Shown piece by piece: positions 9,573 to 42,646 of a DNA stretch of 63,178 nucleotides. The stretch is from Candidatus Moraniibacteriota bacterium. Lineage in GTDB: Bacteria; Patescibacteriota; Minisyncoccia; Moranbacterales; UBA1568. A program made the translations under genes and the position numbers. The stretch lies in assembly GCA_023261645.1 (NCBI GenBank), contig JAHFOO010000002.1:1-63178 (forward strand), given 5' to 3'. A model generated the notes under the pieces. The model ran no database searches. It was not told the DNA's origin and saw only the letters and a program-made list of their open reading frames with translations. The first letter of the stretch is position 1. Every line of letters begins with the position of its first letter.

Positions 9573-9776
9573 AGAGCCAGTTCAAAATCTGATGTCGAGA
9601 GAAAGGTTTCTGATTTCGAGACCTGCCTACCGGCAGGCAGGTGCAAATTATGCAGAGTGCGAAGGCCTATCGTGATAAGCCGACAATCGATAAGTAATTT
9701 TCAGCCGAAATCAGAAACTTTTGGCCGACGAGTAGTATTGATTTTAACTTATACGTTCAGATTTTGAATAGGCTCT
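9573..9776. repeat. ~200-nt foldback element with an internal palindromic repeat
   Basis: 9573-9592 pairs with 9757-9776 (12-bp perfect core); 9603-9618 pairs with 9706-9721; ACCTGCCT-ACCGGC-AGGCAGGT at 9621-9642. Confidence 0.8.
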
Positions 9777-9815
9777 AGGGCCGAATATCATCTATTATAG
9801 TGGAAACGGTGACTC

Positions 9816-9844
9816 TTGACAAAAAGCATAAATTTTGCTAGTAT
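9816..9844 (+). promoter_or_regulatory. sigma70-type promoter
   Basis: TTGACA-17 nt-TAGTAT. Confidence 0.65.
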
Positions 9845-9874
9845 GTAACGTTTAAGAACTAATAATATATTTTT

Positions 9875-10831
9875 ATGAATAGTCGCAGATTTTGGCTTTC
9901 GAAAGAGGTTTTTATCGGTTTGGCGGTTGCGTTCATTATCGCAGTACCGGTGCTTGTTTTTGGTAGCACTAAGGTCGTATTTGTCGATAAAGATGCCAAC
10001 GGTTCTCAAGATGGAACTTCCGATCATCCATATCAAAGTATTTCCGAAGCACTCGATCATATCAAAGATGGTACGGAAGTGCATATTGCGAAAGGAACAT
10101 ATAAGGAAAACGTCACTCTTCCAAAAGGTGTGAAACTCATTGGAACGAAAAAAGACAGAGGGGCTGTCGTTATTGAAGCCAAAAACGATAGTCGACCGAC
10201 TATCACTATGAAGCATCAGTCAGAACTCGATCATTTGACCGTCGAAGGTGGTCGTCATGGTGTGCGTATCGTAGAAGATTCTAAAGCGATCATCTATGAT
10301 GTTGTCGTAAAGAACAGCAACCGTGATGGTATTCATATCGATGCTGCTCCGCTCAATAAGAAATATCAGATCTATATCGGAAAGACAGACGTGAAAAACA
10401 ATGACCGCGCAGGTATTTATGCCGAAAAACGAAACATCGTAATCATGGACAGCAACATCATTTCCAATGATAGTGATGGTATAGATTTTGCAGCAGGAAC
10501 CAAAGCGTGGCTTGAAAATGATCGTTTCAATGATAATAAAGGAAGCGGAGCCAAATTCACGCTTGATGGGGCGAATATTTGGAGCAAGAAAAACGGTTTC
10601 CGAAACAACAAGCATGAAGGCGTTGAAGTCAACGCATACGGAGTAGCGGGTATGATCAGTTTCAAGAAAACTACGCTTGTGAATAACGATCAGTATGGTA
10701 TCGCCAAAATTGCACGAACGGTCTCCGGTACCCGTGCTTTCGGAGGAATCGTTCTCGAATCAGGTATGAATGTGAACAATATAAGCAACAATACCTTTGG
10801 AAATATTTCTTCAATTCTTCGAGTATTCTAA
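9875..10831 (+). CDS. membrane-anchored right-handed beta-helix protein (pectate-lyase-like fold)
   Basis: N-terminal TM; DGTSDHPYQSISEAL...GTY motif; repeated N..DGI / NN..GV rungs. Confidence 0.8.
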   Translation: MNSRRFWLSKEVFIGLAVAFIIAVPVLVFGSTKVVFVDKDANGSQDGTSDHPYQSISEALDHIKDGTEVHIAKGTYKENVTLPKGVKLIGTKKDRGAVVIEAKNDSRPTITMKHQSELDHLTVEGGRHGVRIVEDSKAIIYDVVVKNSNRDGIHIDAAPLNKKYQIYIGKTDVKNNDRAGIYAEKRNIVIMDSNIISNDSDGIDFAAGTKAWLENDRFNDNKGSGAKFTLDGANIWSKKNGFRNNKHEGVEVNAYGVAGMISFKKTTLVNNDQYGIAKIARTVSGTRAFGGIVLESGMNVNNISNNTFGNISSILRVF

Positions 10832-10950
10832 TTTCTGTGAATATCTCTCAGAGGAAATTATAGGATTACCCTCGCTTCGTCTGCCGTAATACAAAAAGAA
10901 AGTTCAAGAGAGATCAATCTCCATAATTATTCGAAGCTGTATCACCAGAT

Positions 10951-12120
10951 ATGAAAATCGCTTTCATCGGACAAAAAGGGATCCCGAGTCTTTCCGGCGG
11001 TGTTGAAAAACACGTCGAGAACTTGGCGGTACACATGGTATCACTCGGACACGATGTGACCGTGTATACCAGGCCATCCTATACGGATGAATCCTTGAAA
11101 GAATTCCGGGGTGTGAAACTTGTTTCGCTTCCGAGCATCAGAACGAAGCATCTTGATGCTATCACGCATACATTCGTGGCGACGCTTCATGCGTTGTTTC
11201 AGAATTACGATGTGCTACATTATCACTCCATCGGACCGAGTGTGTTGTCATTTATTCCGATTATCTTTCGTCCGAGTATGCGGGTAGTGGCGACATTCCA
11301 TAGCCGTGACTATATGCATCAGAAGTGGGGGAGTGTGGCACGATTTTGCCTCCAGATCGCTGAAAAAATTATTTGCACCATTCCGGAAAAAACAATCGTC
11401 ATCAGTGAAACATTGAAGCAATATGCAGAAAAGAAATATCATCGTTCATTCACATTGGTTCCCAATGGTGCCGATGTCAGGCTCGAATCTGATACGGAAT
11501 TGCTGAATGCCTGGGGACTCCGTCCCAAGCGTTATATTTTGTCAGTCAGTCGTTTGGTGGCTCACAAAGGTATTCATTATCTTATCAAGGCATTCAATGA
11601 ACTGGAAGACACAAATAAGATTCCGAATAATTTCAAATTGGTCATCGTCGGCTCATCCGCGTATACGGAGGAATATGAAAAATTTCTGAAAGTGCTCGCC
11701 AGTGGACGGAGTAATATCATCTTTACGGGTGAACAGACAGAAAAGGCACTTGAAGAATTGTTTTCACACGCATATCTTTTCGTGCAACCATCAGAAGACG
11801 AAGGATTGTCCTTGGCTCTTCTTGAAGCGATGGGACACGGCCTCCTGCCACTTGTCAGTGATATCCCCGCCAATCGTGAGGCTATCGCTCATACGGGAGT
11901 ATTCTTTCTCAACAAAGATGTGAATAGTCTGAAGAAAGAACTTGCTTATTTCATCAATCGTCCCGATGAGGTGACAGCGTTCGGGAAGATGGCTAGAGAA
12001 CGCATACACACACATTATAGCTGGGAAGCCATAGCGCAGAAGACACTTGAAGTATATGAGGACTCCTTACATAAATATAGTAATACGAAAGAACACTATG
12101 CTCCGTATCATACGAAATAA
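10951..12120 (+). CDS. glycosyltransferase family 4
   Basis: GGVEKHV, SVSRLVAHKG, PSEDEGLSLALLEAMGHG. Confidence 0.9.
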   Translation: MKIAFIGQKGIPSLSGGVEKHVENLAVHMVSLGHDVTVYTRPSYTDESLKEFRGVKLVSLPSIRTKHLDAITHTFVATLHALFQNYDVLHYHSIGPSVLSFIPIIFRPSMRVVATFHSRDYMHQKWGSVARFCLQIAEKIICTIPEKTIVISETLKQYAEKKYHRSFTLVPNGADVRLESDTELLNAWGLRPKRYILSVSRLVAHKGIHYLIKAFNELEDTNKIPNNFKLVIVGSSAYTEEYEKFLKVLASGRSNIIFTGEQTEKALEELFSHAYLFVQPSEDEGLSLALLEAMGHGLLPLVSDIPANREAIAHTGVFFLNKDVNSLKKELAYFINRPDEVTAFGKMARERIHTHYSWEAIAQKTLEVYEDSLHKYSNTKEHYAPYHTK

Positions 12121-13186
12121 ATTGGCGACATCCTCTCTCGGTCGTGCCTTTGTTGTAACATTTTTTTTCGTTACACTGGCAGCGGGTCTTTTTTGGCTCG
12201 ATTTTTTCCGGAGTTACAGTGCAGAAGTGACTGTCCTTATCGTTCCGAAATCCGGTACGACACAGACGTTCGAAGGTGTGGCGGACAATATGGCAGAGCT
12301 GACAGGCACACTTTCATTTTATGATCGAGTACTCGCGGGGAATGATTTGATAGACGATGATTTCGCTTCATATGCTCCGGATAAACGTAAGGAGCAATGG
12401 AACAATATTGTTTCAGTAACAAAACAAAACAAGAGCGGAGTTCTCGTCATTCGAGCGATCGGAGATACGCAGGAGCGGGCGAAATGGCTGGCTTCACAAA
12501 CAGCACAGACGATGTTTTCAGTCGCTGGTTTGTACTACAATGTGAAAACGGATATTGATATGCGCATCGTCGATGGCCCTCTTGTTTCTTATACCGTTGA
12601 GAGACCGTTCTTTTATGCAGGAGTCAGTCTTCTAACAAGTTTTTCCTTGACAGCTCTTTTTTTCTTCCTTTTGCGTGCAGTACCCGAATTGATCTGGAAA
12701 AAGAAAAAAGACATACCTTTTCCAGATACGTATCCTGCACCGGTGCAGTCAGGTTTCGATGAAACTCTTATGAGGCGTGCCTATCCGGAATTCGGCGTGG
12801 GAGAGTCCGTTCCTTGGATTGATCCGAAAAAGTTCATTCCCGAAAAACCACACGTACTTTCATTTGAGAATCAGTCTCAGGAGGGGGCGGATGCTTCTTC
12901 AGTGTACGGATCTCGCACCGTGAAGCATGCGGAAGCTCCGGTCAATCTGCCGACGGCGTATGATGAGATGGATCTTCCTGTGGCTGACGAAGCATCTCTT
13001 CCGTTTGAATTCGAGATACCATCGGACGAAACGAACGCTCCGGAACTGCGGGAAGAAACAATAATGATGACTCCGCAAGAAGAGTTGGTGGCATCTCTTT
13101 CGTCTCCAGAACCTGTGCGAGGCGAACCGACACAGGAAGAATACAGACGACGCTTGAATGTATTACTCGCCCATAAAGGAAAATAA
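12098..13186 (+). CDS. two-TM protein resembling a polysaccharide chain-length determinant, with an acidic Pro-rich tail
   Basis: TM-periplasmic domain-TM layout (YSAEVTVLIV; IDMRIVDGP); located in the glycan cluster. Confidence 0.6.
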   Translation: MLRIIRNKLATSSLGRAFVVTFFFVTLAAGLFWLDFFRSYSAEVTVLIVPKSGTTQTFEGVADNMAELTGTLSFYDRVLAGNDLIDDDFASYAPDKRKEQWNNIVSVTKQNKSGVLVIRAIGDTQERAKWLASQTAQTMFSVAGLYYNVKTDIDMRIVDGPLVSYTVERPFFYAGVSLLTSFSLTALFFFLLRAVPELIWKKKKDIPFPDTYPAPVQSGFDETLMRRAYPEFGVGESVPWIDPKKFIPEKPHVLSFENQSQEGADASSVYGSRTVKHAEAPVNLPTAYDEMDLPVADEASLPFEFEIPSDETNAPELREETIMMTPQEELVASLSSPEPVRGEPTQEEYRRRLNVLLAHKGK

Positions 13187-14562
13187 TGAAAAAATATTCT
13201 ACTCAATTTTGGACAGTTTTTATCATCGGATCGATCATCTTTCTGTCCGGCTGGTTTGCGTATTGGGAAGTGAAAAATCAGGGATTCGAGAGTCTGCAAC
13301 GCCTTCTCGGTTTGGTGCCTCTTCCACAAGAAACGAAAACTGATCTGGAGACGGTGATGTATTTGGCCGATGCAGTACTCCATACCGACGGGAAAGAGAA
13401 GGTATTTTTGATTCTTTTTCAAAATAATTTGGAGTTGCGTCCGGGAGGTGGGTTCATTGGATCATTTGGTATTTTGAAAGTTCGTGATGGTTCCGTCGTC
13501 GATTTTTCCGTACACGATACCGGGAATTTCGACGGACGTATCCCGAGCACGGTCGCTCCTCCGTATCCGATGCAAGAAACGCTTCATATCGATTCGTGGA
13601 AATTGCGTGATTCGAACTATGCCCCTGATTTTTCTGAGAATGCCAAATGGGCGGAAACGTTCTATCAAATGGGACAGGGACAAGAAAAATTTGATGGTGT
13701 TGTCGCGGTGACGACCAATGTACTGACATCGTTTCTTCATGTGACAGGACCGGTAACTATCGATGGTTACCCCGGTACTTACGGTGAAGAGAACGCCATT
13801 TTGGATCTCGAATATCAGGTAGAACAGGGATATCTCAAGCAGAATATCGATTTTGGCGAACGGAAATCGGTTATGACCGTACTCGGATTCGGAATCCTTC
13901 ACCAAGTGAAAGGATTATCGCTCACAAAAAAATACGAATTGTTCAAAGTAGTGCTAGATGATCTGCATAAGAAAGATATCCAATTACAGTTTCAGGACGA
14001 GATACTTCAGAAGCAGGTTTCTGCTTCAGGCTTTGACGGTCGTATGGATGACAGCTGGAAGAGCGATTATCTGTTCCTTACGGATGCTAATCTCGGTTCT
14101 TTCAAGACCGACTACTTTATGAAGCGTTCCTATGCCTATACCATCGATCTCTCCTCGACTGAGGCGCCCAAGGCGACGCTCGCAGTGACATACAAGAATA
14201 CGACTCCGGTACAGGATTGGTTCGCGAAGGATTATCAGACGTTTCTTCGTGTGTATGTTCCGCAAGGAAGTTATCTGACTACGGTAACGGGGGCGGCCAA
14301 GGATCCTGTGTATGGGACATTCCTGAATAAGAAATATTTCGGGGCACTTGTTCACGTACCGATTTTGACGGAAAAAACAGTCGTCTTCGAATATACGTTA
14401 CCGCAGGATTTGAAACGTGAGTGGTATGATTTGAAAATACAAAAACAGCCGGGATTGAATGACGTTCCTGTCACAGTCACGATTATCATGAAAGATGGAT
14501 CCAGAGAAGAGAAACAGTTTGTACTCAACAGGGATACCGTGTTGAGTGAGATCAAAAATTAG
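13186..14562 (+). CDS. DUF4012-like membrane-anchored protein
   Basis: LILFQNNLELRPGGGFIGSFG, LRDSNYAPDF, FDGVVAV motifs typical of this family. Confidence 0.8.
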   Translation: MKKYSTQFWTVFIIGSIIFLSGWFAYWEVKNQGFESLQRLLGLVPLPQETKTDLETVMYLADAVLHTDGKEKVFLILFQNNLELRPGGGFIGSFGILKVRDGSVVDFSVHDTGNFDGRIPSTVAPPYPMQETLHIDSWKLRDSNYAPDFSENAKWAETFYQMGQGQEKFDGVVAVTTNVLTSFLHVTGPVTIDGYPGTYGEENAILDLEYQVEQGYLKQNIDFGERKSVMTVLGFGILHQVKGLSLTKKYELFKVVLDDLHKKDIQLQFQDEILQKQVSASGFDGRMDDSWKSDYLFLTDANLGSFKTDYFMKRSYAYTIDLSSTEAPKATLAVTYKNTTPVQDWFAKDYQTFLRVYVPQGSYLTTVTGAAKDPVYGTFLNKKYFGALVHVPILTEKTVVFEYTLPQDLKREWYDLKIQKQPGLNDVPVTVTIIMKDGSREEKQFVLNRDTVLSEIKN

Positions 14563-14664
14563 CAAAGTTGTTTTTTGCATGTGCACTGTCTGTAAGAATG
14601 CCCGATGTGGGTATTTTTGCTTTTGATAAGAGTTTTTGTGGTACAATAAAGTAAAAGTGTCTGT

Positions 14665-14842
14665 TGTTCCTGAAAATTATCTTTTCTCTCCCTTCTTTCT
14701 CCGTCGAACTTTTCCGACTCAGTCGTCGATAAACGTCACTGTCCTGTCGAGACCATCCGTCACGCTCCGTTTCTAATGACACTTTCATCGCAAAAGTTAC
14801 CGACAGAGAAATAGGAGCAAGAAAAAATAATTTTCAGAAACA
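14665..14842. repeat. ~180-nt foldback (rod) element
   Basis: Terminal 23-nt inverted repeat (21/23) plus nested stems CTCC/GGAG, TTTCTC/GAGAAA, GTCG/CGAC, AACTTTT/AAAAGTT, AAACG/CGTTT. Confidence 0.8.
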
Positions 14843-14877
14843 TCTACTTTTTGTCATAATCTGTGTTCTGAACAAAA

Positions 14878-15573
14878 ATGCATTTCGATATCATCTCACT
14901 TTTTCCGGAAAGCTTCACATCCTATTTTGGTGTGTCTATTCTGAAACGTGCACAGGAGGACGGTTTGATCACTGTTTCCACGCACAATCTGCGTGATTTC
15001 GCTCACGATAAACATAAAACAGTCGATGACACGCCGTATGGCGGTGGAGCGGGGATGCTTCTTAAAGTAGAACCATTGGCGGAGGCTATTGAATCAGTTG
15101 ATAATCGACAGCCGACAGATAGCGAAAAATTAAAGACAAGAATAATCTTGTTCTCAGCAAAGGGGAAAGTCTTTACACAATCAGATGCACGGCGATTGAT
15201 TTCATACGACCGGTTGGTTTTGGTTTGCGGACGCTACGAAGGTGTCGATGAGCGTGTGACGGAGTATTTCATCGATGAGGAATTTTCCATTGGTGAGTAC
15301 GTTCTGACAGGAGGAGAATTGCCGGCGATGATTGTTGTTGATGCGGTGGCACGGCTCATCTCGGGCGTGCTTGGCAATAGAGAGAGTACGGAAGAGGAAT
15401 CACACACCGAAGAGGGTATCGTGGAATATCCACAATATACAAAACCGGAAGACTTTCGCGGATACCGGGTGCCGGAAGTGCTTCTCTCCGGACACCATGG
15501 CAATATCCTGAAATGGCGGAAAGAAGAATCAAAGAAAGAAACAGCGAAGCATACGAGGAAATCTCTTCAATAA
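14878..15573 (+). CDS. trmD: tRNA (guanine37-N1)-methyltransferase
   Basis: VDDTPYGGGAGM, LVCGRYEGVDER, SIGEYVLTGGELPA, EYPQYTKP. Confidence 0.97.
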   Translation: MHFDIISLFPESFTSYFGVSILKRAQEDGLITVSTHNLRDFAHDKHKTVDDTPYGGGAGMLLKVEPLAEAIESVDNRQPTDSEKLKTRIILFSAKGKVFTQSDARRLISYDRLVLVCGRYEGVDERVTEYFIDEEFSIGEYVLTGGELPAMIVVDAVARLISGVLGNRESTEEESHTEEGIVEYPQYTKPEDFRGYRVPEVLLSGHHGNILKWRKEESKKETAKHTRKSLQ

Positions 15574-15582
15574 AACATTCGT

Positions 15583-16698
15583 ATGAACAATCGGAGCAAT
15601 ACCATCGATCGATCTTTTCTCGTCGCTATACTGATTCTTCTTTGTATCGGGCTTCTGATGATTGCAAGTGCGGGAGTACTCTATGGTCGGACTCGTTTTG
15701 GTGATGCCTACTATTTCTTCAAACAGCAACTCGTAGGATTGAGTGTCGGACTCGTGTTGCTGTATGTTTTCTCGCGTATCGACTATCGGGTATGGAGGCG
15801 GTTTGTCACCCCGATATTTTTTGTGGCACTCGGATTGCTTGTTTTGGTATTTGTTCCTGGCTTTGGCACGACAGTATATGGGGCGGCACGCTGGGTACAG
15901 ATCGGACCTTTTTCTTTTCAGCCATCCGAGGTGATGAAGCTCGCCATCATTCTTTATTTGGCTGCATGGCTCTCGAATAAGGAAAAGAGAAAGACAGCAG
16001 ATTTTTTTGAAGGGTTTGTTCCTTTTCTTGCAATTCTTTCAATTGTCGGATTTCTTATCATCAAACAACCGGATACGGGAACTTTGGGACTCATATTCCT
16101 TGTTTCTCTCTCTATTTTTTTCGCATCAGGAGCCAACATAAAACATATGTTGTATCTTTTTCTTGCCGGGCTTTCGTTCCTCTTTATTCTTATCAAAATG
16201 GCTCCATATCGGATGCAACGCTTTTTGGTATATATGAACCCAGGACATGACCCACAAGGACTCGGCTATCAGATGACGCAGGCATTGCTTGCTATCGGAT
16301 CCGGCGGAATCTTCGGTGCAGGTTTGGGACAGAGCCGACAGAAATTCAATTATCTTCCTGAACCGGTGACGGATTCTATCTTTGCCGTTCTCGGTGAAGA
16401 GCTTGGCCTTATAGGCACGATAGTCATCGTCGTACTGTTTCTTTTTGTGGCATACAGAGGGATGCGTATTGCACGTTTCGCATCGGATGAATTCGGTAGG
16501 CTTGTGGCGGTCGGTATCGTATCATGGATCGTTTTTCAAGCATTCATCAATATGTCAGCCATCAGCGGACTCATCCCTTTGACGGGCATTCCTCTGCCGT
16601 TTATCAGCTATGGAGGCACATCGCTCGCAGTACTGCTCGCATCGATTGGAATCTTGCTTAATATAAGCAAATATTCTACACTGAGAGGAGAAAAGTGA
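15583..16698 (+). CDS. ftsW: SEDS peptidoglycan polymerase
   Basis: GAARW, FQPSEVMK, QPDTG, YLPEPVTDSIF, TGIPLPFISYGG. Confidence 0.93.
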   Translation: MNNRSNTIDRSFLVAILILLCIGLLMIASAGVLYGRTRFGDAYYFFKQQLVGLSVGLVLLYVFSRIDYRVWRRFVTPIFFVALGLLVLVFVPGFGTTVYGAARWVQIGPFSFQPSEVMKLAIILYLAAWLSNKEKRKTADFFEGFVPFLAILSIVGFLIIKQPDTGTLGLIFLVSLSIFFASGANIKHMLYLFLAGLSFLFILIKMAPYRMQRFLVYMNPGHDPQGLGYQMTQALLAIGSGGIFGAGLGQSRQKFNYLPEPVTDSIFAVLGEELGLIGTIVIVVLFLFVAYRGMRIARFASDEFGRLVAVGIVSWIVFQAFINMSAISGLIPLTGIPLPFISYGGTSLAVLLASIGILLNISKYSTLRGEK

Positions 16699-16813
16699 TA
16701 AGTGATGCAGGAAGAGATGAAAAGAAAAGTCATCCTGTTTCCATTATTTCGTATCTTTTATCTCTTCCCTCATACCTCTCATTGATTATTTTTTATCGTA
16801 TATCATTTCTCCT

Positions 16814-17962: not shown

Positions 17963-18056
17963 CCGCCGACAGAGTTGATAGTTCACGATAAAAAATAGAC
18001 AAAACACAATTCTCTCTTTTTGTATCGACTGTTTATCGCTTATTGTTTATTGACGT

Positions 18057-19484: not shown

Positions 19485-19511
19485 CGGGCATTATCCGATT
19501 TTATCGGCACT

Positions 19512-19610
19512 CCCTCCAGAGGCGGGCAGTCGCTCGGAAACGAAAGCCTGCCTGCTTTCGGCACAGCATACTTCCGTTTCGCTCATTTCCCTGTCTGCCG
19601 ACAGGCAGGG
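19512..19610. repeat. cluster of short palindromic (REP-like) units in the murC-murB spacer
   Basis: CCCTCCAGAGGCGGGCAG (19512-19529) and CCCTGTCT-GCCGAC-AGGCAGGG (19589-19610). Confidence 0.75.
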
Positions 19611-19631
19611 TTTGGTAATAAAAACAAAAAT

Positions 19632-20809: not shown

Positions 20810-20856
20810 AATCGAGTATGGTATAATGGGAATGTAATCCCTTAACATACAAAGAT

Positions 20857-24078: not shown

Positions 24079-24340
24079 GAAATTCTGCCCGTCGAGGTGA
24101 GTGTCTAGGAAGTAAAAATATTTTTGGCAATAAAAAATCCTCGACATTTTATGAAGAGGAAGGGAGAGCGAGGAGGGGTTTTGGGTTGGGGGATAAAAAC
24201 GTTGTTTTATTGTTGTGGTATCTAAAGTAGATACCGACTTCCCTCAAATGTCTCCTCCATCTCCTCGCACATAAAGTATACCACGCTTATCATTCTGTGC
24301 AAGTACACGAATTTGAGGCTTATACAAAGTAATAAATACT

Positions 24341-24645: not shown

Positions 24646-25116
24646 ATGACAAAGAAAATAATGACACTGTGTTTGATCGTGAAAGATGACAGCGTTTTGC
24701 TCGGTATGAAGAAGCGCGGTTTCGGATCGGGGAGATGGAATGGTTTTGGTGGAAAATTACACGAAGGAGAATCTGTCGAAGATGCTGCCAAGCGTGAAAC
24801 GACCGAAGAATGCGGTATCGTTATTCAAACGATGGAGAGAGTCGGTATCCATGAATTCGAGTTTGAGAAAGAAAGAGGAGCAATCCTCGAAGTGCACGTT
24901 TTTCGTGTGGACGCTTTTTCAGGTGAACCTGAAGAAACAGAAGAAATGCGACCGGAGTGGTTTGGTTTTTCAGACATTCCGTACGACACGATGTGGCCCG
25001 ATGATCGATACTGGTTGCCACTTTTTCTTGCCGGGAAAAAATTCCGGACAAAATTTCTTTTTGGTGAAGGAGACAATGTTCTGGAAAAGGAAGTTTCAGA
25101 GGTGGAGAATATCTGA
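24646..25116 (+). CDS. Nudix hydrolase, 8-oxo-dGTPase (MutT/NUDT1-like)
   Basis: LLGMKKRGFGSGRWNGFGGK, Nudix box AKRETTEECG, MWPDDRYW. Confidence 0.9.
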   Translation: MTKKIMTLCLIVKDDSVLLGMKKRGFGSGRWNGFGGKLHEGESVEDAAKRETTEECGIVIQTMERVGIHEFEFEKERGAILEVHVFRVDAFSGEPEETEEMRPEWFGFSDIPYDTMWPDDRYWLPLFLAGKKFRTKFLFGEGDNVLEKEVSEVENI

Positions 25117-25121
25117 GAAGA

Positions 25122-25150
25122 TTGCTTTCTCACTATCTTTAGTCTATACT
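25122..25150 (+). promoter_or_regulatory. sigma70-type promoter upstream of the tRNA scaffold
   Basis: TTGCTT-17 nt-TATACT. Confidence 0.6.
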
Positions 25151-25174
25151 TGCTTTTGTTTGAGCTGAAATAAT

Positions 25175-25536
25175 GGGCCTGTAGTCTAGCTTGCCCCGTC
25201 ACCTATTTAGGAAAGAATGTTCTATTGAGTGAGTTTTAAGACGTAGTCGCCAAACGGCTTTTGCTAACAACCAGAGAATATTTTTGCTAGAATAGGTGAC
25301 GGGGTGAAGTAAAACAGTGCATTTTCACCCCAGCACCAAAACTTTTTTGTTTGGGCTTGTAGTATAGTGGTAATACGCTGCATTCGCATTGCAGAGACGC
25401 GAGTCCGATTCTCGCCAAGTCCACATAGGATTTTTAAAGAAGTTTTGGTAGCGGGGCACGTTGCACATTTACCTGCCGTAGGCAGGGGCGCGAGTTCCCC
25501 TCCGAAGGCGGGCAGGGATTCCGCCCAGGTCCACCA
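25175..25536 (+). ncRNA. tRNA-Ala-like scaffold with four loop insertions, enclosing a complete tRNA
   Basis: GGGCCTG (25175-81) pairs with CAGGTCC (25526-32) including G3:U70, then A-CCA; GTCT/AAAC D-stem (3/4); GTGCA/TGCAC anticodon-like stem; T arm degenerate. Confidence 0.6.
25353..25423 (+). tRNA. tRNA-Ala(CGC), CCA not encoded
   Basis: Full cloverleaf GGGCTTG/CAAGTCC with G3:U70, GTAT/ATAC, CTGCA-TTCGCAT-TGCAG, GCGAG-TCCGATT-CTCGC, discriminator A. Confidence 0.92.
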
Positions 25537-25659
25537 AAATTTATCAAAGAAGTTTTGATAACATAGCACATTGCTGATTGGTCTGGAGTCTCCTATACTG
25601 TCGACAGACAGGGATTCTTCCTGGATCCACAAAATAAGTTTAATACATATTGAATTCAG

Positions 25660-25965
25660 ATGAACAAGAATTCTCCACATATACTTAATACGTCTTCGAA
25701 TCTTCTTGGATTCACCTTCCTTGTCCTTACTTCGATGAAAGGATTTGGGATTACCCAAGGAAGTTTTATTGGGGAGATAATTTCACTGTGTGTTGCGCTT
25801 TTTGCTCTGAGTAGTTTTTTCTCTTTTTCGTCGATGCATATAAAATCAGGTGAGAGAATCATACGGTACGAAACAATAGCCTCATATATTTTTTTAAGCG
25901 GATTATTTGCAATTACGATTATCTCCGTCCTTTTGGCTTTTGATATCATTATTTTGAAGAAATAG
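25660..25965 (+). CDS. small membrane protein (~3 TM)
   Basis: 101 aa hydrophobic ORF; promoter-like TTGCTG-17-TATACT at 25571-25599. Confidence 0.75.
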   Translation: MNKNSPHILNTSSNLLGFTFLVLTSMKGFGITQGSFIGEIISLCVALFALSSFFSFSSMHIKSGERIIRYETIASYIFLSGLFAITIISVLLAFDIIILKK

Positions 25966-26086
25966 GTCTTTCTTTTGGAAGAAACACGTATCTGAGTCTC
26001 TCGTTCCGCTATTGGAGTGATGGAGTTGCCAAAATGTCTCATTTCGAGTAGACTGGTTCAAGTAATAGGTTAGCGTATATTCAGAT

Positions 26087-26527
26087 ATGAAAGTCATTCT
26101 TTTGCAGGATGTGAAGAATTTTGGTAAGGCCGGTGAAATCAAAGAAGTGCGTAGCGGGTACGGATTCAATTTTCTGTTGCCGAAAGGCTTGGCAGAATTC
26201 GCCACTCCGGTCGCCATCAAGCAGGCGGAGAAATCGGTTGCCAGACATCATGAAGAAATCGGCGTGATGACTGACTCTTTCAAGAAACGAGCAGAAGAGC
26301 TCTCAGGAAAGAAAGTGACCATCAAGACAAAAGCGGAAAAAGGAAAATTGTTCGGTTCCGTCGGACGAGAAGAAATCGTGAGTGCTTTGCAAGAAGCAGG
26401 TATAACGATAGAAACTGAGTTCATAGGTATCGAAAAACCGTTCAAGGAGGTCGGAACGTTTCCTGTAGAGGCAGATTTCGGACACGGGGTAAAGTCTTCT
26501 TTCGAAGTCATCATCAAAGCCGAGTGA
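26087..26527 (+). CDS. rplI: 50S ribosomal protein bL9
   Basis: MKVILLQDV...GYGFNFLLPKG, GKLFGSV. Confidence 0.96.
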   Translation: MKVILLQDVKNFGKAGEIKEVRSGYGFNFLLPKGLAEFATPVAIKQAEKSVARHHEEIGVMTDSFKKRAEELSGKKVTIKTKAEKGKLFGSVGREEIVSALQEAGITIETEFIGIEKPFKEVGTFPVEADFGHGVKSSFEVIIKAE

Positions 26528-32558: not shown

Positions 32559-34186
<1,628 letters not shown>

Positions 34187-34580: not shown

Positions 34581-34624
34581 ACGAGGAGAGCTTACAAATT
34601 ACCGATGATTTGATATACTGAATG

Positions 34625-34653: not shown

Positions 34654-34738
34654 TCCCGCACTGATTTTCTGTTTAAGCTCAAGTGTATGATAATATCTAT
34701 GGAGACTGGGGGATTTAATAAAAATTAGTGTGGGACCA

Positions 34739-35164
34739 ATGTTTCATTTCACTTTTTTTCATAATGGGAAAGACTGGCTGATAAGCCATCGGAAGAATCT
34801 GTTTCTTTTGGCGGGTATTTCTGTTTTTGGAACACTTACCTTTGAAAGTGGTTTTTTACGAGGAGAAATCTCTCAATCCAAACCACTTGTCGTATCGATT
34901 CCCGCATTGATAGAGCCATCTGGTACAACTGATACAGCTGGTCCTCGTCAAGAGGTGGAGGCAGGAGGAGTAGAGAGAGTCGCCTCACAATCAAACGAGA
35001 AACAGGTTGTCGGAAGTTGCCCTTTGGTAGGAAGTCGTAATTCGAACAAGTATCATCTTTCTACGTGCGCCGTTGCCAAAAGGATCAAGCCGGAAAACAA
35101 AGTGTGCTTTTCATCGAAAGAAGATGCTGAGAAACGTGGTTATATCGCCGGCTGTGTGAAATAA
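34739..35164 (+). CDS. membrane-anchored protein with a C-terminal Ada-like metal-binding domain
   Basis: One TM; VGSRNSNKYHLSTC...CFSSKEDAEKRGY..C. Confidence 0.78.
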   Translation: MFHFTFFHNGKDWLISHRKNLFLLAGISVFGTLTFESGFLRGEISQSKPLVVSIPALIEPSGTTDTAGPRQEVEAGGVERVASQSNEKQVVGSCPLVGSRNSNKYHLSTCAVAKRIKPENKVCFSSKEDAEKRGYIAGCVK

Positions 35165-35244
35165 TTGTAGGAAAGATGGAAGGAGTGTGTCTGCTCGCAA
35201 GAGAATACTTTTTGTGACATAATAGGAGAGGATAAAACAAAAAA

Positions 35245-36432: not shown

Positions 36433-36633
36433 GAAACGCCGAAATGTTTCTTGTTTGGAGAATGAGCCAAAAAATGTTAAAATAAGGAAGAAATGAGAGT
36501 CGTATTTTCCGGTTTCGTTGTGCTCAAGAGAGAGATTTCAGCTGAGTCCGAAGGGAAGCGACAATCGAAGAGGTAGGAGGAGAATAAAAAAATGACTGAA
36601 TTTCTATGGCTCGCAAGAGAGTCGTCGGAGTTC
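36433..36633. repeat. ~200-nt foldback (rod) element between the MFS gene and scpA
   Basis: Nested stems CCGA/TCGG, TCTTG/CAAGA, GAGCC/GGCTC, AGAAAT/ATTTCT, AGTC/GACT, TATTTTCC/GGAGAATA, TTCG/CGAA, TTGT/ACAA, GCT/AGC. Confidence 0.7.
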
Positions 36634-36646
36634 CTCTGATCTTTGT

Positions 36647-37354
36647 ATGGCTTATCAAATACATTTAGAACAATTCGAAGGACCGCTTGACCTTCTATTG
36701 TCTCTCATCGAAAAAGAGAAACTTGATATCACACATGTGAGTCTCGCAAAAGTTGCTGACCAGTATCTGGAATATCTCAAAGGGGAAGAAACTATTACGC
36801 TGTATAATCTCGCATCGTTCCTTTCCATCGCAGCACGTCTTCTTCTCATCAAATCACGGGCTCTCCTTCCGATTCTCGAGTTCAGTGATGAGGAAGAAGA
36901 ATCGATGGATGATTTGGAAGTGCGCTTGAAAGAATATAAACGTTTCCGTGAAGTGGCCCTGAAGTTGGATGTGTCACTTCGTCGTGGACGAAGCGCTCAT
37001 GCGAGGGAAAGCTTTTTGGGAACACAGGTAGTATTCTACCCACCGAGAGGATTGACGGTTGCGGATCTGCATTTTCACTTTACGGATGTACTTGGAGAGA
37101 TTCCTATACTTGAGATACTGCCGGAGAAAGAGATACAAGCAGTCATCACATTGGAAGAGAGAATTATCGAATTGAAGCGAACACTGACGGAACGAGCGGA
37201 GACTTCTTTCGCTGATCTGATTCGTTTGAGTACGGATCGGATCGAGGTCATCGTTTCATTCCTTGCCATCCTTGAAATGGTGAAACAGCGTGTCGTTTTC
37301 GTGCATCAAGAAAAGGTTTGGAGTGATATCCGTATCAATCGTTTTGCCTCATAA
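36647..37354 (+). CDS. scpA: segregation/condensation protein A
   Basis: FEGPLDLLLSLI, RLLLIKSRALLP, FLAILEMVK. Confidence 0.95.
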   Translation: MAYQIHLEQFEGPLDLLLSLIEKEKLDITHVSLAKVADQYLEYLKGEETITLYNLASFLSIAARLLLIKSRALLPILEFSDEEEESMDDLEVRLKEYKRFREVALKLDVSLRRGRSAHARESFLGTQVVFYPPRGLTVADLHFHFTDVLGEIPILEILPEKEIQAVITLEERIIELKRTLTERAETSFADLIRLSTDRIEVIVSFLAILEMVKQRVVFVHQEKVWSDIRINRFAS

Positions 37355-37359
37355 AGAAT

Positions 37360-37983
37360 ATGCCCTCCACACATCTTATATCAGCTTTGGAATCCGTATT
37401 GTTCATAAGTGGTGAACCGCTTGCTTCTGTGCGTCTGGCGAAGATCATAGGCACCGATGAGTCGACGGTGACCGATTTGCTTCAAGTGCTTATGGAGAGA
37501 TATGCCAATGATGAGACGTGCGGACTGATGCTTATTGTGAAGGATAGCAAAGTGACACTGGCTACCAAGCCGGAAAATGCCATATTCGTTGAGGCGTTGA
37601 CCAAAAGTTCTCTCCAAGAAAATCTCAGTAAAGCCGCTCTTGAAGTACTTTCTATCGTCGCTTATCGTTCACCAATTTCCCGTGCCGAGATTGAGGCTAT
37701 CCGCGGTGTCAATTGTAGTTTTACATTACGTAATCTTCTTCTCCGCGATCTTATCGAACGACAAGATAATCCCGATGATCAGAGAGAATATGTGTATTTC
37801 CCGACATTTCGTCTTCTGGAATCTCTCGGATTACAGAGTACGGGAGACCTTCCTGATTACCAGACATTGTCCGTCGATGAACGTTTGAAAATGATTACAG
37901 ACCTGCCTGAAATAGCACGGATGGGAGAGAAAAATCAGACAGGACAAGAGAAGAGTGATCGAGAAAATGAAATAAAAGAATAA
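37360..37983 (+). CDS. scpB: segregation/condensation protein B
   Basis: LESVLFISGEP, LSKAALEVLSIVAYRSPISRAEIEAIRGVN. Confidence 0.95.
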   Translation: MPSTHLISALESVLFISGEPLASVRLAKIIGTDESTVTDLLQVLMERYANDETCGLMLIVKDSKVTLATKPENAIFVEALTKSSLQENLSKAALEVLSIVAYRSPISRAEIEAIRGVNCSFTLRNLLLRDLIERQDNPDDQREYVYFPTFRLLESLGLQSTGDLPDYQTLSVDERLKMITDLPEIARMGEKNQTGQEKSDRENEIKE

Positions 37984-37988
37984 AGAGT

Positions 37989-39017
37989 ATGCGGAAATCA
38001 ATCATTTTTTTGTCTGCAATCGGAATCATCTCCGTTCTTCTTATAGGCAATGGAGCTCATTTTTCTGCACGTGGAGAAAGTTTGCTTCATTTTTTCTCTA
38101 ATGATAAAGGGCGCTTTTCAGATTCTCCGGATGGTTTGAATTGGGTTGAAAGAGCACCTTTTGTTACAGAAGACCGTAGTCTGACGAGCGGATTCGTTCC
38201 GGAATTGAAGCTTTATGCTCCGCATCTGAGTATTCCGTCGGCACATGCCTCGGTCATTTTGGATGTCGATTCAGGAAAAATACTCTATGCGCAGAATGCC
38301 GATGCCGAACGACAGATAGCCTCTCTTACGAAACTCTTTACTGCTACCATCGTGATGGAACGTATCAAGAATCTCGATGAACTTGTGACAATTGATGAGG
38401 AAGCCGTGTATGCGGAGGGTACCCGTATCGGCTGTCCACGTTCCGGTTTCTGTAACGGGGAGCGTCTCAAAGTGGGGGAACAGCTGGCTGCACGTGATCT
38501 TCTGAAAGCGGCACTTATGAATAGCGCCAATGACTCGGCTATCGCCTTGGGCAAACATATCGGCAAGACGCAGGACGGCTTTGCGAGTATTATGAATGAA
38601 CGAGCCAAAGAATTGGGATTGACGCACACACATTTTTGTACGCCGTCAGGATTGGAGCCTGATGGACGTGAATCAGAATGTTACTCTTCCGCACTCGATG
38701 TGGCGAAAATCGCCGCTCATGCTCTGGAGTTTCCAAAATTATGGGAAATTATGCGCTTGGACAAACAAACCATCACTTCTTCCGATGGGAAATGGAGCCA
38801 CGAACTTTTCAATACGGATCAGCTCCTCGGTCAATTGCCGAATCTTATCGGAACGAAGACGGGATTCACACCTTTGGCAGGGTATTCTCTTTTGGCAGTA
38901 GCGACGGATCAGAGTCAGAAGCATAGAGTTGTTGCTGTTTTGCTCGATGACCCGTATCGTTGGCAGAACATCCAATCGATGTTCGGTTGGAGTTTTCAGG
39001 CAATTGATTGGAAATAA
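37989..39017 (+). CDS. serine D-alanyl-D-alanine carboxypeptidase (peptidase S11)
   Basis: ASLTK (SxxK), SAND (SxN), KTG motifs. Confidence 0.9.
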   Translation: MRKSIIFLSAIGIISVLLIGNGAHFSARGESLLHFFSNDKGRFSDSPDGLNWVERAPFVTEDRSLTSGFVPELKLYAPHLSIPSAHASVILDVDSGKILYAQNADAERQIASLTKLFTATIVMERIKNLDELVTIDEEAVYAEGTRIGCPRSGFCNGERLKVGEQLAARDLLKAALMNSANDSAIALGKHIGKTQDGFASIMNERAKELGLTHTHFCTPSGLEPDGRESECYSSALDVAKIAAHALEFPKLWEIMRLDKQTITSSDGKWSHELFNTDQLLGQLPNLIGTKTGFTPLAGYSLLAVATDQSQKHRVVAVLLDDPYRWQNIQSMFGWSFQAIDWK

Positions 39018-39028
39018 AAAATGAAAGT

Positions 39029-40144
39029 ATGGATGTTCAAGTTTCACAGATACAAAGTATTCCCTTGGTGATCAACATCCTTAAGGTTCTTACGACCGGA
39101 TTTCTGGCATTTTTTCTGGCATTTTTCCTTACACCACTTTGGACACACATCTTGTTCAAGTATAAGATCGGTATCAAAATCAAGGAGAAATCCGTTGATG
39201 GTAATCAGTTGACATTCGTCAATAAGCTCCACGCACGCAAACAAGGAACGCCGACGATGGGTGGTGTCATCGTGTGGGTGGCAGTACTTCTTTTGGTGCT
39301 CTTATCACATTATATTTTTCCATTTATCGCAGAATGGACCGGTATGAACTTCATCGCGCGTCTGGATTTTTTCAGTCGTGCTCAAGTGTGGTTACCTCTC
39401 TTCGCATTGGTGACAGCAGGTATTTTGGGATTGTTTGATGACTATATGAGTGTCCGTGGGTGTGGCACCAACAAGGGTGGCGGTATGCGCTTCGCATTTC
39501 GTTTTTGGTGGCTCTTTGTGATTGCCGGAGCAGGAGCTTGGTGGTTCTACTCGAAACTTGGCTGGGATCGTATCCATATTCCGGCTATCGGCGACTTCTC
39601 CATCGGCCTGTGGTATATCCCGCTTTTTATTTCCATTATTCTTTTCACGGCTATTTCTTCCAACGAAACTGACGGTTTAGACGGTCTTGACGGAGGCGTA
39701 CTTCTTACCGCTTTCAGTTCATTCATATTGATTTCTTTCTTGCAGAACAAGATTGATTTGGCAGCATTCTGCGCCGCTATTGCCGGAGCACTTTTGGCTT
39801 TTCTCTGGTTCAATATCTATCCCGCACGTTTTTTTATGGGTGATACCGGAGCCATATCGCTCGGTACGACGCTCGGTGTCGTGGCGATGCTCACCAACTC
39901 TTCTTTGATTCTTTTTATCATCGTATTCATCTATGTTCTCGAGTCAGGAAGTGCTGCCATACAGTTATTCAGCAAGCGTTTCTTCGGACGTAAGGTTTTT
40001 CTCGCAGCACCGCTCCATCATCATTTCGAGGCCAAAGGATGGGTTGAACCGAAGATTGTTATGCGAGCATGGATTTTCACGGCATTTACCGCCTTGATCG
40101 GACTTATAATCGGCATCCTGGGTATGGGAAGATTACACTTCTAA
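39029..40144 (+). CDS. mraY: phospho-N-acetylmuramoyl-pentapeptide transferase
   Basis: KQGTPTMGG, GLFDDY, NETDGLDGL, FMGDTG, APLHHHFE. Confidence 0.96.
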   Translation: MDVQVSQIQSIPLVINILKVLTTGFLAFFLAFFLTPLWTHILFKYKIGIKIKEKSVDGNQLTFVNKLHARKQGTPTMGGVIVWVAVLLLVLLSHYIFPFIAEWTGMNFIARLDFFSRAQVWLPLFALVTAGILGLFDDYMSVRGCGTNKGGGMRFAFRFWWLFVIAGAGAWWFYSKLGWDRIHIPAIGDFSIGLWYIPLFISIILFTAISSNETDGLDGLDGGVLLTAFSSFILISFLQNKIDLAAFCAAIAGALLAFLWFNIYPARFFMGDTGAISLGTTLGVVAMLTNSSLILFIIVFIYVLESGSAAIQLFSKRFFGRKVFLAAPLHHHFEAKGWVEPKIVMRAWIFTAFTALIGLIIGILGMGRLHF

Positions 40145-40164
40145 TTCTTCTAATTTTAAAAAAT

Positions 40165-41211
40165 ATGTCACTGAAACATATTGAACAAGGCAATTTCGAA
40201 AATGCACGTGTCTTGATGAGAGTGGATTTCAATGTCGAATTCAAAAATGTAAACGAGGTGCAGGAACACTTCCGTTTCGACATAGTGAAGAAGACAGTGG
40301 ACTTCGTTCTCGGATTTCCAGGAACGAAACTGGCACTCCTGACACATTTTGGTCGTCCGGAGGGGAAAGATGCGAATTTTTCCGTGAAGCAGATCGTCTC
40401 GACAGTAGAAGCGACACTTGGTCGCAGAGTCGTTTTCGTTGATGATTGTATCGGTGATACGGTAGAATCGGCACTTGAAAACCTCGCTCCAGGGGAAGTG
40501 CTTCTTTTGGAAAATGTTCGTTTTTATGAAGGAGAAGAAAAAAATGATCCGCAGTTTGCCGAAAAACTGGCCGAACACTTCACTGTTTTCGTAAATGAGG
40601 CGTTCAGCGTCTGTCATAGAGAACATGCTTCGATTGTCGGTGTACCGAAATTATTGCCATCGTATGCCGGATTTCATATTCTTGAAGAAGTAGAGAAACT
40701 TGATGATGCTATCTCTGCCCCGAAACACCCTGCGGTAGCAATCATCGGTGGAGCAAAAATCGAGACAAAATTGCCTCTCATCCGTATGTTCGAAGAGAAA
40801 TATGATTGTATTCTCGTTGGAGGAAAAGTCGCCAATGAGGCTCTTGATCAGAATATTGCTTTTTCTGAAAAAGTGCTTCTGCCTCAAGATTTTGACTCCT
40901 CGCTTCGTCTGGATATCGGACCGAAAACGATTTCTTATTTCATCCAAATCATCAAAGTAGCGAAAACGATCGTGTGGAACGGACCGATGGGGAAATTTGA
41001 AGAGAAGCCGTATGATATCGGTACGGAGGCTATCCTTTATGCTATCCTCGAAAGCAATGCATATGTCATTATTGGTGGAGGAGAATCGTTGGCCGTGCTT
41101 GAGAAAGCAGGTGTGATGAACAAGATCGGATTTGTTTCTTCTGGAGGCGGGGCGATGCTCGAATATTTGAGCGGGAAGAAATTGCCGGGTTTGGAAGCGT
41201 TGGAGAGCTGA
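40165..41211 (+). CDS. pgk: phosphoglycerate kinase (compact, 348 aa)
   Basis: RVDFNV, HFGRPEG, LLENVRF, IGGAK, WNGPMG, SSGGGAMLEYL. Confidence 0.95.
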   Translation: MSLKHIEQGNFENARVLMRVDFNVEFKNVNEVQEHFRFDIVKKTVDFVLGFPGTKLALLTHFGRPEGKDANFSVKQIVSTVEATLGRRVVFVDDCIGDTVESALENLAPGEVLLLENVRFYEGEEKNDPQFAEKLAEHFTVFVNEAFSVCHREHASIVGVPKLLPSYAGFHILEEVEKLDDAISAPKHPAVAIIGGAKIETKLPLIRMFEEKYDCILVGGKVANEALDQNIAFSEKVLLPQDFDSSLRLDIGPKTISYFIQIIKVAKTIVWNGPMGKFEEKPYDIGTEAILYAILESNAYVIIGGGESLAVLEKAGVMNKIGFVSSGGGAMLEYLSGKKLPGLEALES

Positions 41212-41257
41212 GATATGACGGAGAGAAAAAGATAAATGAGATATGATAAGAAAAAAT

Positions 41258-42535
41258 ATGGCAAAAATCACTGAAATACGTGGGAGAGAGATCCTGGATT
41301 CACGTGGCAATCCGACCGTGGAGGTACGAGTGAGGCTGGATGATGGGACGGAGGCGTTTGCTGGCGTGCCATCAGGAGCTTCGACGGGAGCATTCGAAGC
41401 GGTGGAGCTTCGTGATAATGACCCGAATCGTTATGGTGGTCTGGGTGTTTTGAACGCCATAGAGAATGTAAATGAGGAACTTGCTCAGGCAGTCATCGGT
41501 ATGGAAGCAGATGATCAAAAGACGTTGGACAAGAGGATGATTGCACTCGACGGCACAGAAAACAAAGCTCGTTTGGGCGCCAATGCTATTTTGGGAGTTT
41601 CTTTGGCCGTCTGTCGAGCTGCTGCCAAGAGTAAGAATCTGCCTCTTTATATGCATATTTCGACACTTCTTTCTAAAAAGAAGAAAACGTTCACACTGCC
41701 TGTTCCGATGTTCAATATTTTAAACGGTGGTAAACATAGTGACTCCGGACTTTCCGTGCAAGAGTTCAAGATTATTCCTGCCGGAATCAAAGAATACAAA
41801 GAGCAATTACGTGCAGGTGCTGAGATTTTTCATACTTTGAAAAAACTGTTGGAACGAGAACGACTGGCAGTAGGAGTAGGTGATGAAGGGGGTTTCGCTC
41901 CGCATCTGGAAAGCCACGCGCAGGCACTGGAAATGATTATTCGAGCCATAACAGAGGCCGGATACGCTCCTGGCAAGCAGATATTCATCGGTCTCGATGT
42001 CGCCGCCAATTCTTTCTATGATGCGAGTGAAGATCAGTATGTTCTCAAGCCGGAAGGCGTCTCTCTTTCGCGCGAAAGTCTTATCAACGTGTATCGTGAA
42101 TGGATACAGAAATATTTCGTAGTCTCCATCGAAGACGGATTGCACGAAGAGGATTGGACCGGCTGGGCTTTGATGCAAGAAAAGTTGGGTAAAGAAGAGA
42201 CTGCGTGGAAAAAACCGCTTTTGTTCATCGGTGATGATCTCTTGGTGACGAATGTAAAACGCTTGAAGAAGGCTATCACGATGCACTCTTGTAATTCTGT
42301 TCTGATCAAACTGAATCAGATCGGCACAGTCACAGAAACGATTGTCTGTATGGAGTTGGCGGAGAAGCAGAAGATGAAGCGTATGATATCGCATCGTTCC
42401 GGTGAGACCACTGATGATTTCATCACGGATTTTGCCGTCGGAACTCATGCGGAATTTATCAAATCAGGATCGCTCTCGCGTGGTGAACGTATCGTCAAAT
42501 ACAATCGGCTATCGGAGATCTTTGACGTGGTATAA
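41258..42535 (+). CDS. eno: enolase
   Basis: REILDSRGNPTVE, VPSGASTG, VGDEGGFAP, SHRSGET. Confidence 0.98.
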   Translation: MAKITEIRGREILDSRGNPTVEVRVRLDDGTEAFAGVPSGASTGAFEAVELRDNDPNRYGGLGVLNAIENVNEELAQAVIGMEADDQKTLDKRMIALDGTENKARLGANAILGVSLAVCRAAAKSKNLPLYMHISTLLSKKKKTFTLPVPMFNILNGGKHSDSGLSVQEFKIIPAGIKEYKEQLRAGAEIFHTLKKLLERERLAVGVGDEGGFAPHLESHAQALEMIIRAITEAGYAPGKQIFIGLDVAANSFYDASEDQYVLKPEGVSLSRESLINVYREWIQKYFVVSIEDGLHEEDWTGWALMQEKLGKEETAWKKPLLFIGDDLLVTNVKRLKKAITMHSCNSVLIKLNQIGTVTETIVCMELAEKQKMKRMISHRSGETTDDFITDFAVGTHAEFIKSGSLSRGERIVKYNRLSEIFDVV

Positions 42536-42646
42536 TGAGGATGCTCTGTGAAAGAAGGTGGAATCATTTTTTGAGGATTCAGAAAACCTTTCAGATGCTG
42601 TCGAGGGATACTCAAAGAAATCATAAAAAACAGACAAGATAAAAAT

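Follow-up and report, generated by a model that had tools for sequence, protein, structure and literature searches.

Dispersed repeats to which the hairpins of bacterial spacers can be compared include the Correia elements of Neisseria, BOX and RUP of Streptococcus pneumoniae, ERIC of enterobacteria, and the Rickettsia palindromic elements, and it is established that the REPs of Escherichia coli act as barriers to 3′-exonucleases or as weak terminators. Close to the present case are the REP/REPIN elements and the RAYT Y1 transposases (Bertels et al. 2017, PMC5581495). A further close system is that of the Ssn GIY-YIG single-stranded DNA nucleases with the SRM/NTS (dRS3) hairpin repeats, whose palindrome, ATTCCC-N8-GGGAAT, occurs in hundreds of copies, and which were described in a study that does not show the repeats to move (Chenal et al. 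2025, PMC11893778). Here we examine, against the background of these systems, the hairpins that occupy the intergenic spacers of a Moranbacteria genome of the Candidate Phyla Radiation (CPR), Candidatus Moraniibacteriota bacterium, centering on the first 63 kb of its contig C1 (63,178 nt, referred to as the window). The original prediction had claimed a genome-wide habit of this organism, in which sequence-unrelated hairpins are inserted or grown in transcribed non-coding positions by a process possibly tied to a structure-specific nuclease or to splicing. With a probability of about three in four, we instead consider the spacer hairpins to be a mixed population of ordinary bacterial kinds rather than the product of one special process. 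This reading builds on the membership of hairpins in repeat families, on filled and empty sites in relatives, on the nesting of one palindrome within others, on adjacency to particular genes, and on equality with E. coli in folding, all of which are directly observed.

The metagenome-assembled genome (MAG) in question, G000, comprises 840 kb in 12 contigs with ~45% GC and is 96% complete; the MurC protein of the closest public record (PFVP01000021) is 90% identical to that of the window. The gene names FtsW, MurG, MurC, MurB, SecA, enolase, and PfkB-family kinase, which the original prediction had used, were confirmed by NCBIfam.

Repeat families and orthologous sites

All-against-all BLAST of the genome detected six intergenic families with 6-10 copies of 95-220 nt each, in addition to several smaller ones. 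Four families, FAM0, FAM1, FAM3, and FAM5, have 6-10 copies each, and the repeat members within the window lie at 9570-9778, 2485-2583, 19491-19623, and 14678-14804. The description of the hairpins as unrelated in sequence does not hold, since three rods of the window belong to dispersed families and a nested 20-nt palindrome is shared. The rod at 9573-9776 (204 nt), a foldback of the type of a miniature inverted-repeat transposable element (MITE), represents FAM4 and separates a minus-strand gene for an acyl-CoA ligase from the gene that opens the cell-wall cluster. Its terminal inverted repeats, AGAGCCAGTTCAAAATCTGA, form arms of 20 nt (9573-9592 and 9757-9776) that are 90% complementary, and the family has six genome copies with 85-94% identity. 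FAM2 is a modular repeat consisting of three hairpins plus extra nested inserts; one of its nine genome copies, which occur in both orientations, fills the murC-murB spacer at 19485-19620, and a second copy of the window, inverted and lacking the nested palindrome, lies at 2485-2583 with 77% identity to 19491-19589. The third rod, FAM19 (14665-14842, 178 nt), is a foldback with imperfect inverted arms of 42 nt (14665-14706 and 14801-14842, 81% complementary), and only one other copy was found, at C4:134414-134556 with 72% identity. None of these repeats is assigned a strand. With respect to the genes on either side, family members point in both directions, as expected of DNA elements.

When evaluated against 200 dinucleotide-preserving shuffles each, the large rods fold far more stably than their composition predicts, with z of -5.5 for 9593-9735, -5.4 for 14663-14840, and -8.3 for a further rod at 25190-25310 that is described below. 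The murC-murB hairpin region (19490-19610) has a z of -3.2, and 0/200 shuffles fold as well.

Comparison with a relative of ~84% nucleotide identity, G041, over 16 kb of synteny places all six indels of at least 60 nt in spacers, and five of the six form hairpins, four being present in this genome only and one in G041 only. At 9575-9784, the window has 210 nt, comprising the FAM4 rod, and G041 has 5 nt. The FAM2 site at 19485-19620 measures 136 nt in the window against 0 nt in G041, where the empty site is the direct junction of GCGTATAA and AACAAAAATATG. The FAM19 spacer (14644-14876) is 233 nt long against 90 nt, a difference of +143 nt, and the ftsW-murG spacer (16683-16812) is 130 nt long against 57 nt, a difference of +73 nt that contains the ftsW-murG hairpin; a smaller hairpin occupies the same place in G041. 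Conversely, the 4 nt at 20814-20817 correspond to 126 nt in G041, which form a rod of its own (-47 kcal/mol). The sixth indel (7376-7385, 10 nt in the window against 117 nt in G041) adds 107 nt with a small open reading frame (ORF) and no hairpin. These 107 extra bases of G041, located on the reverse complement of its contig C21 (10817-10933), would encode a 23-residue hydrophobic peptide, MNREEKFLIGVVIVVLLMLALMP, which is absent in the window.

The murC-murB spacer shows the same variability across 20 relatives, with lengths of 0-164 nt, different hairpins, and no more than 27 nt in seven of them; the 164-nt rod of G013 is unrelated. The large rods turn over quickly between species, and turnover of the palindromic families is seen between species that are 84% identical. 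The core of FAM2 without palindromes is also found in the murC-murB spacer of G007, whose MurC is 72% identical, and the site is empty in the closer relatives G041, G003, and G011; this distribution reflects either more than one insertion at the same target or multiple losses.

The nested palindrome, GIY-YIG genes, and a Y1 transposase

The nested 20-nt palindrome, CCTGCCTGCCGGCAGGCAGG, termed PAL, ranks, together with its close variants, with the non-trivial 12-mers that recur most often in the genome. Allowing up to four mismatches, there are 28 copies, 25 of which are intergenic, and none is expected by chance. In the window, the copy CCTGCCTACCGGCAGGCAGG is nested in FAM4 at 9622-9641 and the copy CCTGTCTGCCGACAGGCAGG in FAM2 at 19590-19609 (z -4.4), neither having a strand assigned. 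PAL is present in four FAM4 copies and missing from the other two, the gap being an exact 20-nt block, and it is also missing from the FAM2 copies at 2485-2583 and C10:24045. In both families, presence and absence differ by exactly this 20-nt block without a flanking duplication, and two FAM2 copies carry a further insert within PAL itself; the hairpins therefore 'grow' by nested DNA insertion. Thus, the part of the original prediction that hairpins are inserted or grow in spacers is borne out, namely as DNA-level indels with respect to G041 and as exact PAL blocks.

Of 41 relatives, 25 contain a degenerate PAL pattern, and these represent 13 of the 16 genera; copy numbers range from 0 to 22, and the reversed control gave 0. 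PAL, which is conserved across the order, occurs nested in rods, within tRNA-like fragments, and free in spacers, and it forms the hairpin that flanks tiny single-domain GIY-YIG genes next to tRNA genes. A hand count of the strand compatible with G-U wobble pairs gave ~13 copies in sense and ~6 in antisense, which is not significant. One copy, at C3:38958-38977, lies within a minus-strand ORF of ~2.1 kb whose frame stays open. Outside the order, the perfect 20-mer was found in 35 stretches of IMG/VR viral contigs, and the two that were inspected are high-GC. Such sites include L173 10596-11273, L202 4880-5557, and L179 2773-3848, on contigs unrelated to CPR bacteria. Twice in viral contigs, PAL pairs are exactly 658 nt apart, and the pair in L173 brackets an ORF of 174 residues that is not of the GIY-YIG type.

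The genome has four small single-domain GIY-YIG ORFs of 81-84 residues, which match the Pfam GIY-YIG family with 49-61 bits; NCBIfam yields weak matches only, to the N-terminal part of group I intron endonuclease, and the Protein Data Bank yields a weak match to UPF0213. Two of the four genes (C3:18667-18921 and C4:160252-160506) are preceded by PAL at a distance of 25-75 nt and followed directly by a tRNA gene, and no PAL is located near the other two. Given that PAL occurs once per 30 kb, the probability that two of four genes have such neighbors by chance is ~7e-5. Upstream of each PAL-linked gene, there is a partial 5′ copy of the adjacent tRNA, which is split by PAL in the D-loop in the case of tRNA-Leu and in the anticodon loop in the case of tRNA-Gly. 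Related arrangements occur in two other genomes: the GIY-YIG gene of G029 (C1:319905) lies between inverted arms of 45 nt with PAL in each, and around that of G016 (C24), which has PAL on either side, lie tRNA-Gly copies that carry it in the D-loop and in the anticodon loop.

The D- and anticodon-loop hairpins that had been noted in a tRNA scaffold of the window could be related to these arrangements. A long hairpin in a tRNA-like fragment (25194-25304, plus strand, z -8.3; arms of 30 nt, 80% complementary) lies upstream of tRNA-Ala(CGC) at 25353-25424, and a short form of PAL, CCTGCCGTAGGCAGG (15 nt, 25472-25486, no strand assigned), lies in a tRNA-like fragment downstream of it. The identical 15-mer is found in the D-loop of the G016 tRNA-Gly copy that adjoins the GIY-YIG gene. 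Even with the threshold relaxed to E <= 10, the tRNA-like flanks around 25194-25304 did not register as tRNA, and a low-threshold Rfam scan of 25050-26100 returned only the known tRNA-Ala. The possibility that the fragments are tRNAs each interrupted by one palindrome was rejected, as in silico removal of all PAL-like hairpins followed by a rerun of ARAGORN restored no tRNA. By analogy with the PAL-split tRNA copies, the scaffold at 25175-25536 is probably debris of PAL-type insertions around tRNA-Ala(CGC).

The survey for HUH transposases proposed in the original prediction detected one Y1_Tnp gene (C3:464-1123, 219 residues, Pfam Y1_Tnp 32 bits with a cut-off of 23; locus C3:339-1150, L005). 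The gene is flanked on both sides by a palindrome, ACAGCGGAGAGACCGCTGT, and another copy lies inside it; six perfect copies of this palindrome occur genome-wide, and no more than 3.5 kb separates four of these from the gene. Fourteen homologues in relatives (L116-L129) follow the same plan, each with its own lineage-specific palindrome, and H84, H86, and Y144 are invariant in all 15. An internal copy, which falls in a hypervariable loop, is present in 11 of the 15 genes, in most of them ~175-205 nt from the start. To our knowledge, no RAYT-like gene with its own internal hairpin has been described. A further palindrome, ATTCCCGCCTGCGCGGGAAT (L117 1007-1026, G022:C2), fits the Neisseria dRS3 consensus ATTCCC-N8-GGGAAT; it was seen in a relative from the same genus, where the Y1 gene follows ~280 nt further downstream. 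The Y1 transposase was also considered as a partner of PAL and was dismissed, as PAL never flanks a Y1 gene in 15 genomes; among the better assemblies, genomes with a Y1 gene tend toward many PAL copies, which is a correlation only.

The suggested tie to a structure-specific nuclease is accordingly upheld at the DNA level, where PAL flanks GIY-YIG genes and the Y1 HUH enzyme has a palindrome of its own, and not for RNA. The single-copy Y1 transposase and its cognate palindrome recall RAYT and REP, and the elements in general may be mobilised by these nucleases or transposases. We can also imagine a more specific scheme, which we offer as a speculation with the odds well against it: PAL itself would be a minimal mobile unit, copied as one exact block and without target duplication into the unpaired loops of DNA hairpins by tRNA-adjacent, Ssn-like GIY-YIG nucleases of 84 residues, and would travel between this CPR order and unrelated high-GC phage contigs. 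In such a scheme, the target loops would be MITE interiors, the loop of PAL itself, and the D- and anticodon loops of tRNA genes, and the spacer rods would literally grow hairpin-in-hairpin.

Folding strength, terminators, and competing explanations

Genome-wide, 393 spacers of 60-450 nt were scored against length-matched coding segments, using our own simple dicodon log-odds gene caller with tRNA and rRNA genes masked, and the identical pipeline was applied to 200 kb each of E. coli K-12 and the relatives G010 and G029. The spacers have a mean z of -2.02 with 31% below -3, compared to -0.15 and 0.5% for the coding controls (Mann-Whitney p = 2e-37). The values for E. coli are -2.53 and 36%, those for G010 -1.93 and 29%, and those for G029 -1.84 and 26%, with similar intergenic fractions (8-11%) in the compared genomes. 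Spacers in this genome thus fold no more strongly than those of E. coli, and on this sample, equality with a non-CPR genome, which the original prediction had itself named as a refutation, leads us to regard the habit as ordinary and not as one specific to CPR bacteria. Spacer z also depends on gene orientation (convergent -3.2, co-directional -2.0, divergent -0.8), and the same ranking is common to this genome, E. coli, G010, and G029.

The original prediction had named five small hairpins in addition to the large rods. All the rods and three of the five stand out from shuffled sequences, with z from -3 to -8. Besides the murC-murB region, these are the single-copy ftsW-murG hairpin (16705-16773, plus strand; arms of 18 nt, 83% complementary; z -3.06 for 16710-16768, 2/200 shuffles as good), which has no paralogue in the genome by self-BLAST, and two single-copy hairpins 3′ of secA on the plus strand (24091-24145 and 24162-24265; z -3.47 for 24091-24268, 0/200 shuffles), which have neither a paralogue in the genome nor a T-tail. 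The site orthologous to the secA 3′/tRNA region was not found in G041, synteny being broken there. The other two are indistinguishable from chance: the murG-murC hairpin (17986-18038, plus strand, -5.5 kcal/mol) has a z of -1.0 with 30/200 shuffles as good and a whole-spacer z of -0.2, and the eno-pfkB hairpin (42549-42593, plus strand) has a z of +0.08 with 95/200 shuffles as good and a whole-spacer z of -0.1. These two, together with several window spacers with z near 0, are what could speak for composition as the general cause, in the sense that any AT-rich spacer of such length would give these hairpins. As a general account, this is scarcely credible, in view of the 31% of spacers below -3 against 0.5% of coding segments, the z of -5 to -8 of the rods, and the PAL copies where zero are expected; the rods and the genome-wide excess refute it, and it holds only for the two weak hairpins.

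The stated lack of U-tails is correct for the named hairpins and does not extend to the genome. An explicit stem-plus-tail scan detected a hairpin with a T-tail in 21% of 3′ spacers here and in 28% of those in E. coli, and among spacers with z below -3, the share is 32% in both. A consensus terminator scan of 9573-49572 gave no excess over shuffles (20 vs 18.6; 14 vs 16.8), and the named hairpins, absent from its output, do not classify as rho-independent terminators. The sole hairpin to qualify (14592-14620, plus strand, 13 pairs, tail TTTTGATAAG) starts 30 nt past the stop of the gene at 13186-14562, adjoins the rod at 14665-14842, and is kept in G041. The remainder of the mixed population consists of single-copy hairpins at 3′ ends, and of those that fold strongly, roughly one in three is T-tailed.

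The mixed-population reading is favored by the presence of a repeat or PAL in 43 of 123 strongly folded spacers (z < -3), compared to 18 of 219 spacers with z > -2. Several points weigh against it. In ~65% of the strongly folded spacers, there is no detectable repeat; mobility is not extended to such repeat-free hairpins, including those at 16705-16773 and 24091-24265. No consistent target-site duplication was found in the flanks of five FAM4 copies, and those of FAM2 show a possible, not unambiguous, duplication of ATAA/TAA. A search of 151 genomes from the order detected no autonomous transposon with FAM4 ends, although such elements may be lost from MAGs; apart from one related pair in G123, these ends occur only in the present genome. 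The E. coli control is small, with 200 kb and 70 spacers, and the gene caller is home-made. Moreover, in co-directional spacers (n = 289), the sense strand folds better than the antisense strand (mean z -2.04 vs -1.71, p = 5e-4), and among 104 strongly folded ones its z is the lower of the two in 68, so that the RNA has likely been subject to some selection. The larger part of the structure is strand-symmetric palindromy, and this modest bias is consistent with hairpins that are tolerated or useful in transcripts.

The sense bias is shared ground of two explanations that assign the hairpins to RNA. In one, they are mainly functional RNA that evolved in place, as tail-less or factor-dependent terminators, attenuators, or mRNA-stability elements tuning the cell-wall and secA operons, and their repetition is secondary. 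This is improbable to us, although the repeat-free 65% of strongly folded spacers, the smaller ftsW-murG counterpart in G041, the conserved T-tailed hairpin at 14592-14620, and the orientation gradient would fit it. The gradient is equally predicted by tolerance of insertions and is also found in E. coli, where REPs contribute to it. The largest structures are missing at the orthologous sites of close relatives and are therefore not conserved regulators, and family members occur in both orientations. The other explanation, in which an RNA-level system, for example a structure-specific RNase or a splicing enzyme, forms, removes, or cuts hairpins wherever non-coding sequence is transcribed, as a counterpart to the insertion-rich CPR rRNAs, is less probable still, to a degree that we would not build on it. 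It is compatible with hairpins inside a co-directional operon and with named hairpins lacking T-tails, and structured-RNA insertions do exist in this genome: the 23S rRNA gene is 3.9 kb long against a 2.9-kb model and has a group I intron (62 bits, C3:9287-9459, L209), and tRNA-Asn(GTT) is split by a group I intron of 548 nt (RF00028, 72 bits, C2:75584-76206, L208). These genuine introns, however, are canonical group I and unrelated in sequence to the spacer hairpins, from which they stand apart. The spacer insertions themselves are DNA-level indels between species and dispersed repeats placed in both orientations to transcription, their structure is mostly strand-symmetric, removal of PAL restores no tRNA, and their folding equals that of E. 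coli; nothing points to excision or splicing of the hairpins from RNA.

The inserted elements would collect at the 3′ ends of genes and within operons because insertions are tolerated there. Once transcribed, they may act like the REPs of E. coli, as 3′-exonuclease barriers or weak terminators.

Two further observations were made in this genome. G000 has 35-36 tRNA genes (35 by a standard ARAGORN scan), and those for His, Arg(ACG/TCT), Ser(TGA/GCT), Glu(TTC), and Leu(CAA) were undetected; their absence may be due to gaps in the assembly or to interruptions that ARAGORN does not see. An 18-nt palindrome, ATGTTCCACGTGGAACAT, has eleven copies, mostly ~50 nt apart, at C4:48737-49577 (L210), within a gene-free region of 1.4 kb upstream of tRNA-Ala(GGC). 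The array looks like iterons, an origin, or a regulatory array, and Rfam gave no match in its region.

Comparison with described systems

A special RNA-level hairpin habit of CPR bacteria is a tempting idea, which is unsupported here, as folding in the spacers is like that in E. coli. Even at less than a megabase, genomes of the symbiont type still carry several small mobile palindromic DNA families, also within an essential cell-wall operon. For annotation, the rods, the PAL copies, and the surrounding tRNA-like fragments are better regarded as repeat debris than as new RNA genes; an Rfam scan of the whole window matched only tRNA-Ala, and the spacer hairpins fit no Rfam family. The PAL/GIY-YIG and Y1/palindrome pairs could provide compact, testable systems for the spread of hairpin repeats, and no description of either pair in CPR bacteria was found in the searchable literature.

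With the insertion-rich rRNAs and introns of CPR bacteria, this genome shares the 3.9-kb 23S rRNA gene with its group I intron and the tRNA-Asn intron. Such introns are catalytic and match RF00028, whereas no Rfam family covers the spacer hairpins, whose behavior is that of DNA repeats. Rho-independent terminators are similar in their location at gene 3′ ends, in the orientation gradient, and in a T-tail rate near that of E. coli; the named rods differ in being far longer, in lacking T-tails, and in being missing from orthologous sites. MITEs and modular intergenic repeats are alike in that they too are rods of ~100-220 nt in spacers, also inside operons and in both orientations. FAM4 and FAM19 are short and non-coding with terminal inverted repeats, and there are several dispersed copies (six of FAM4 and nine of FAM2, though only two of FAM19) with filled and empty sites between relatives. 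The differences lie in the low copy numbers, in families that are species-specific, in the lack of a detected target-site duplication or autonomous partner, and in the nested, independently varying 20-nt palindrome.

The Y1/palindrome pair resembles RAYT/REP at low copy number, by analogy of a single-copy Y1 HUH enzyme with conserved HUH and Tyr residues that is flanked by a palindrome recurring elsewhere. It is distinguished by only six cognate copies, by a score of 18 bits against the NCBIfam REP_Tyr_transpos cut-off of 80, by the palindrome inside the gene in 11 of 15 cases, and by the fact that the abundant PAL is not the flanking palindrome of the enzyme. In a comparable manner, the PAL/GIY-YIG arrangement resembles the Ssn/SRM system, as a single-domain GIY-YIG protein of ~80-100 residues is flanked, sometimes on both sides, by a dispersed GC-rich palindrome of 20 nt whose copy number varies widely between related species. 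Here, however, the palindrome is PAL and occurs in tens rather than hundreds of copies, and the genes directly adjoin tRNA genes, parts of which are duplicated.

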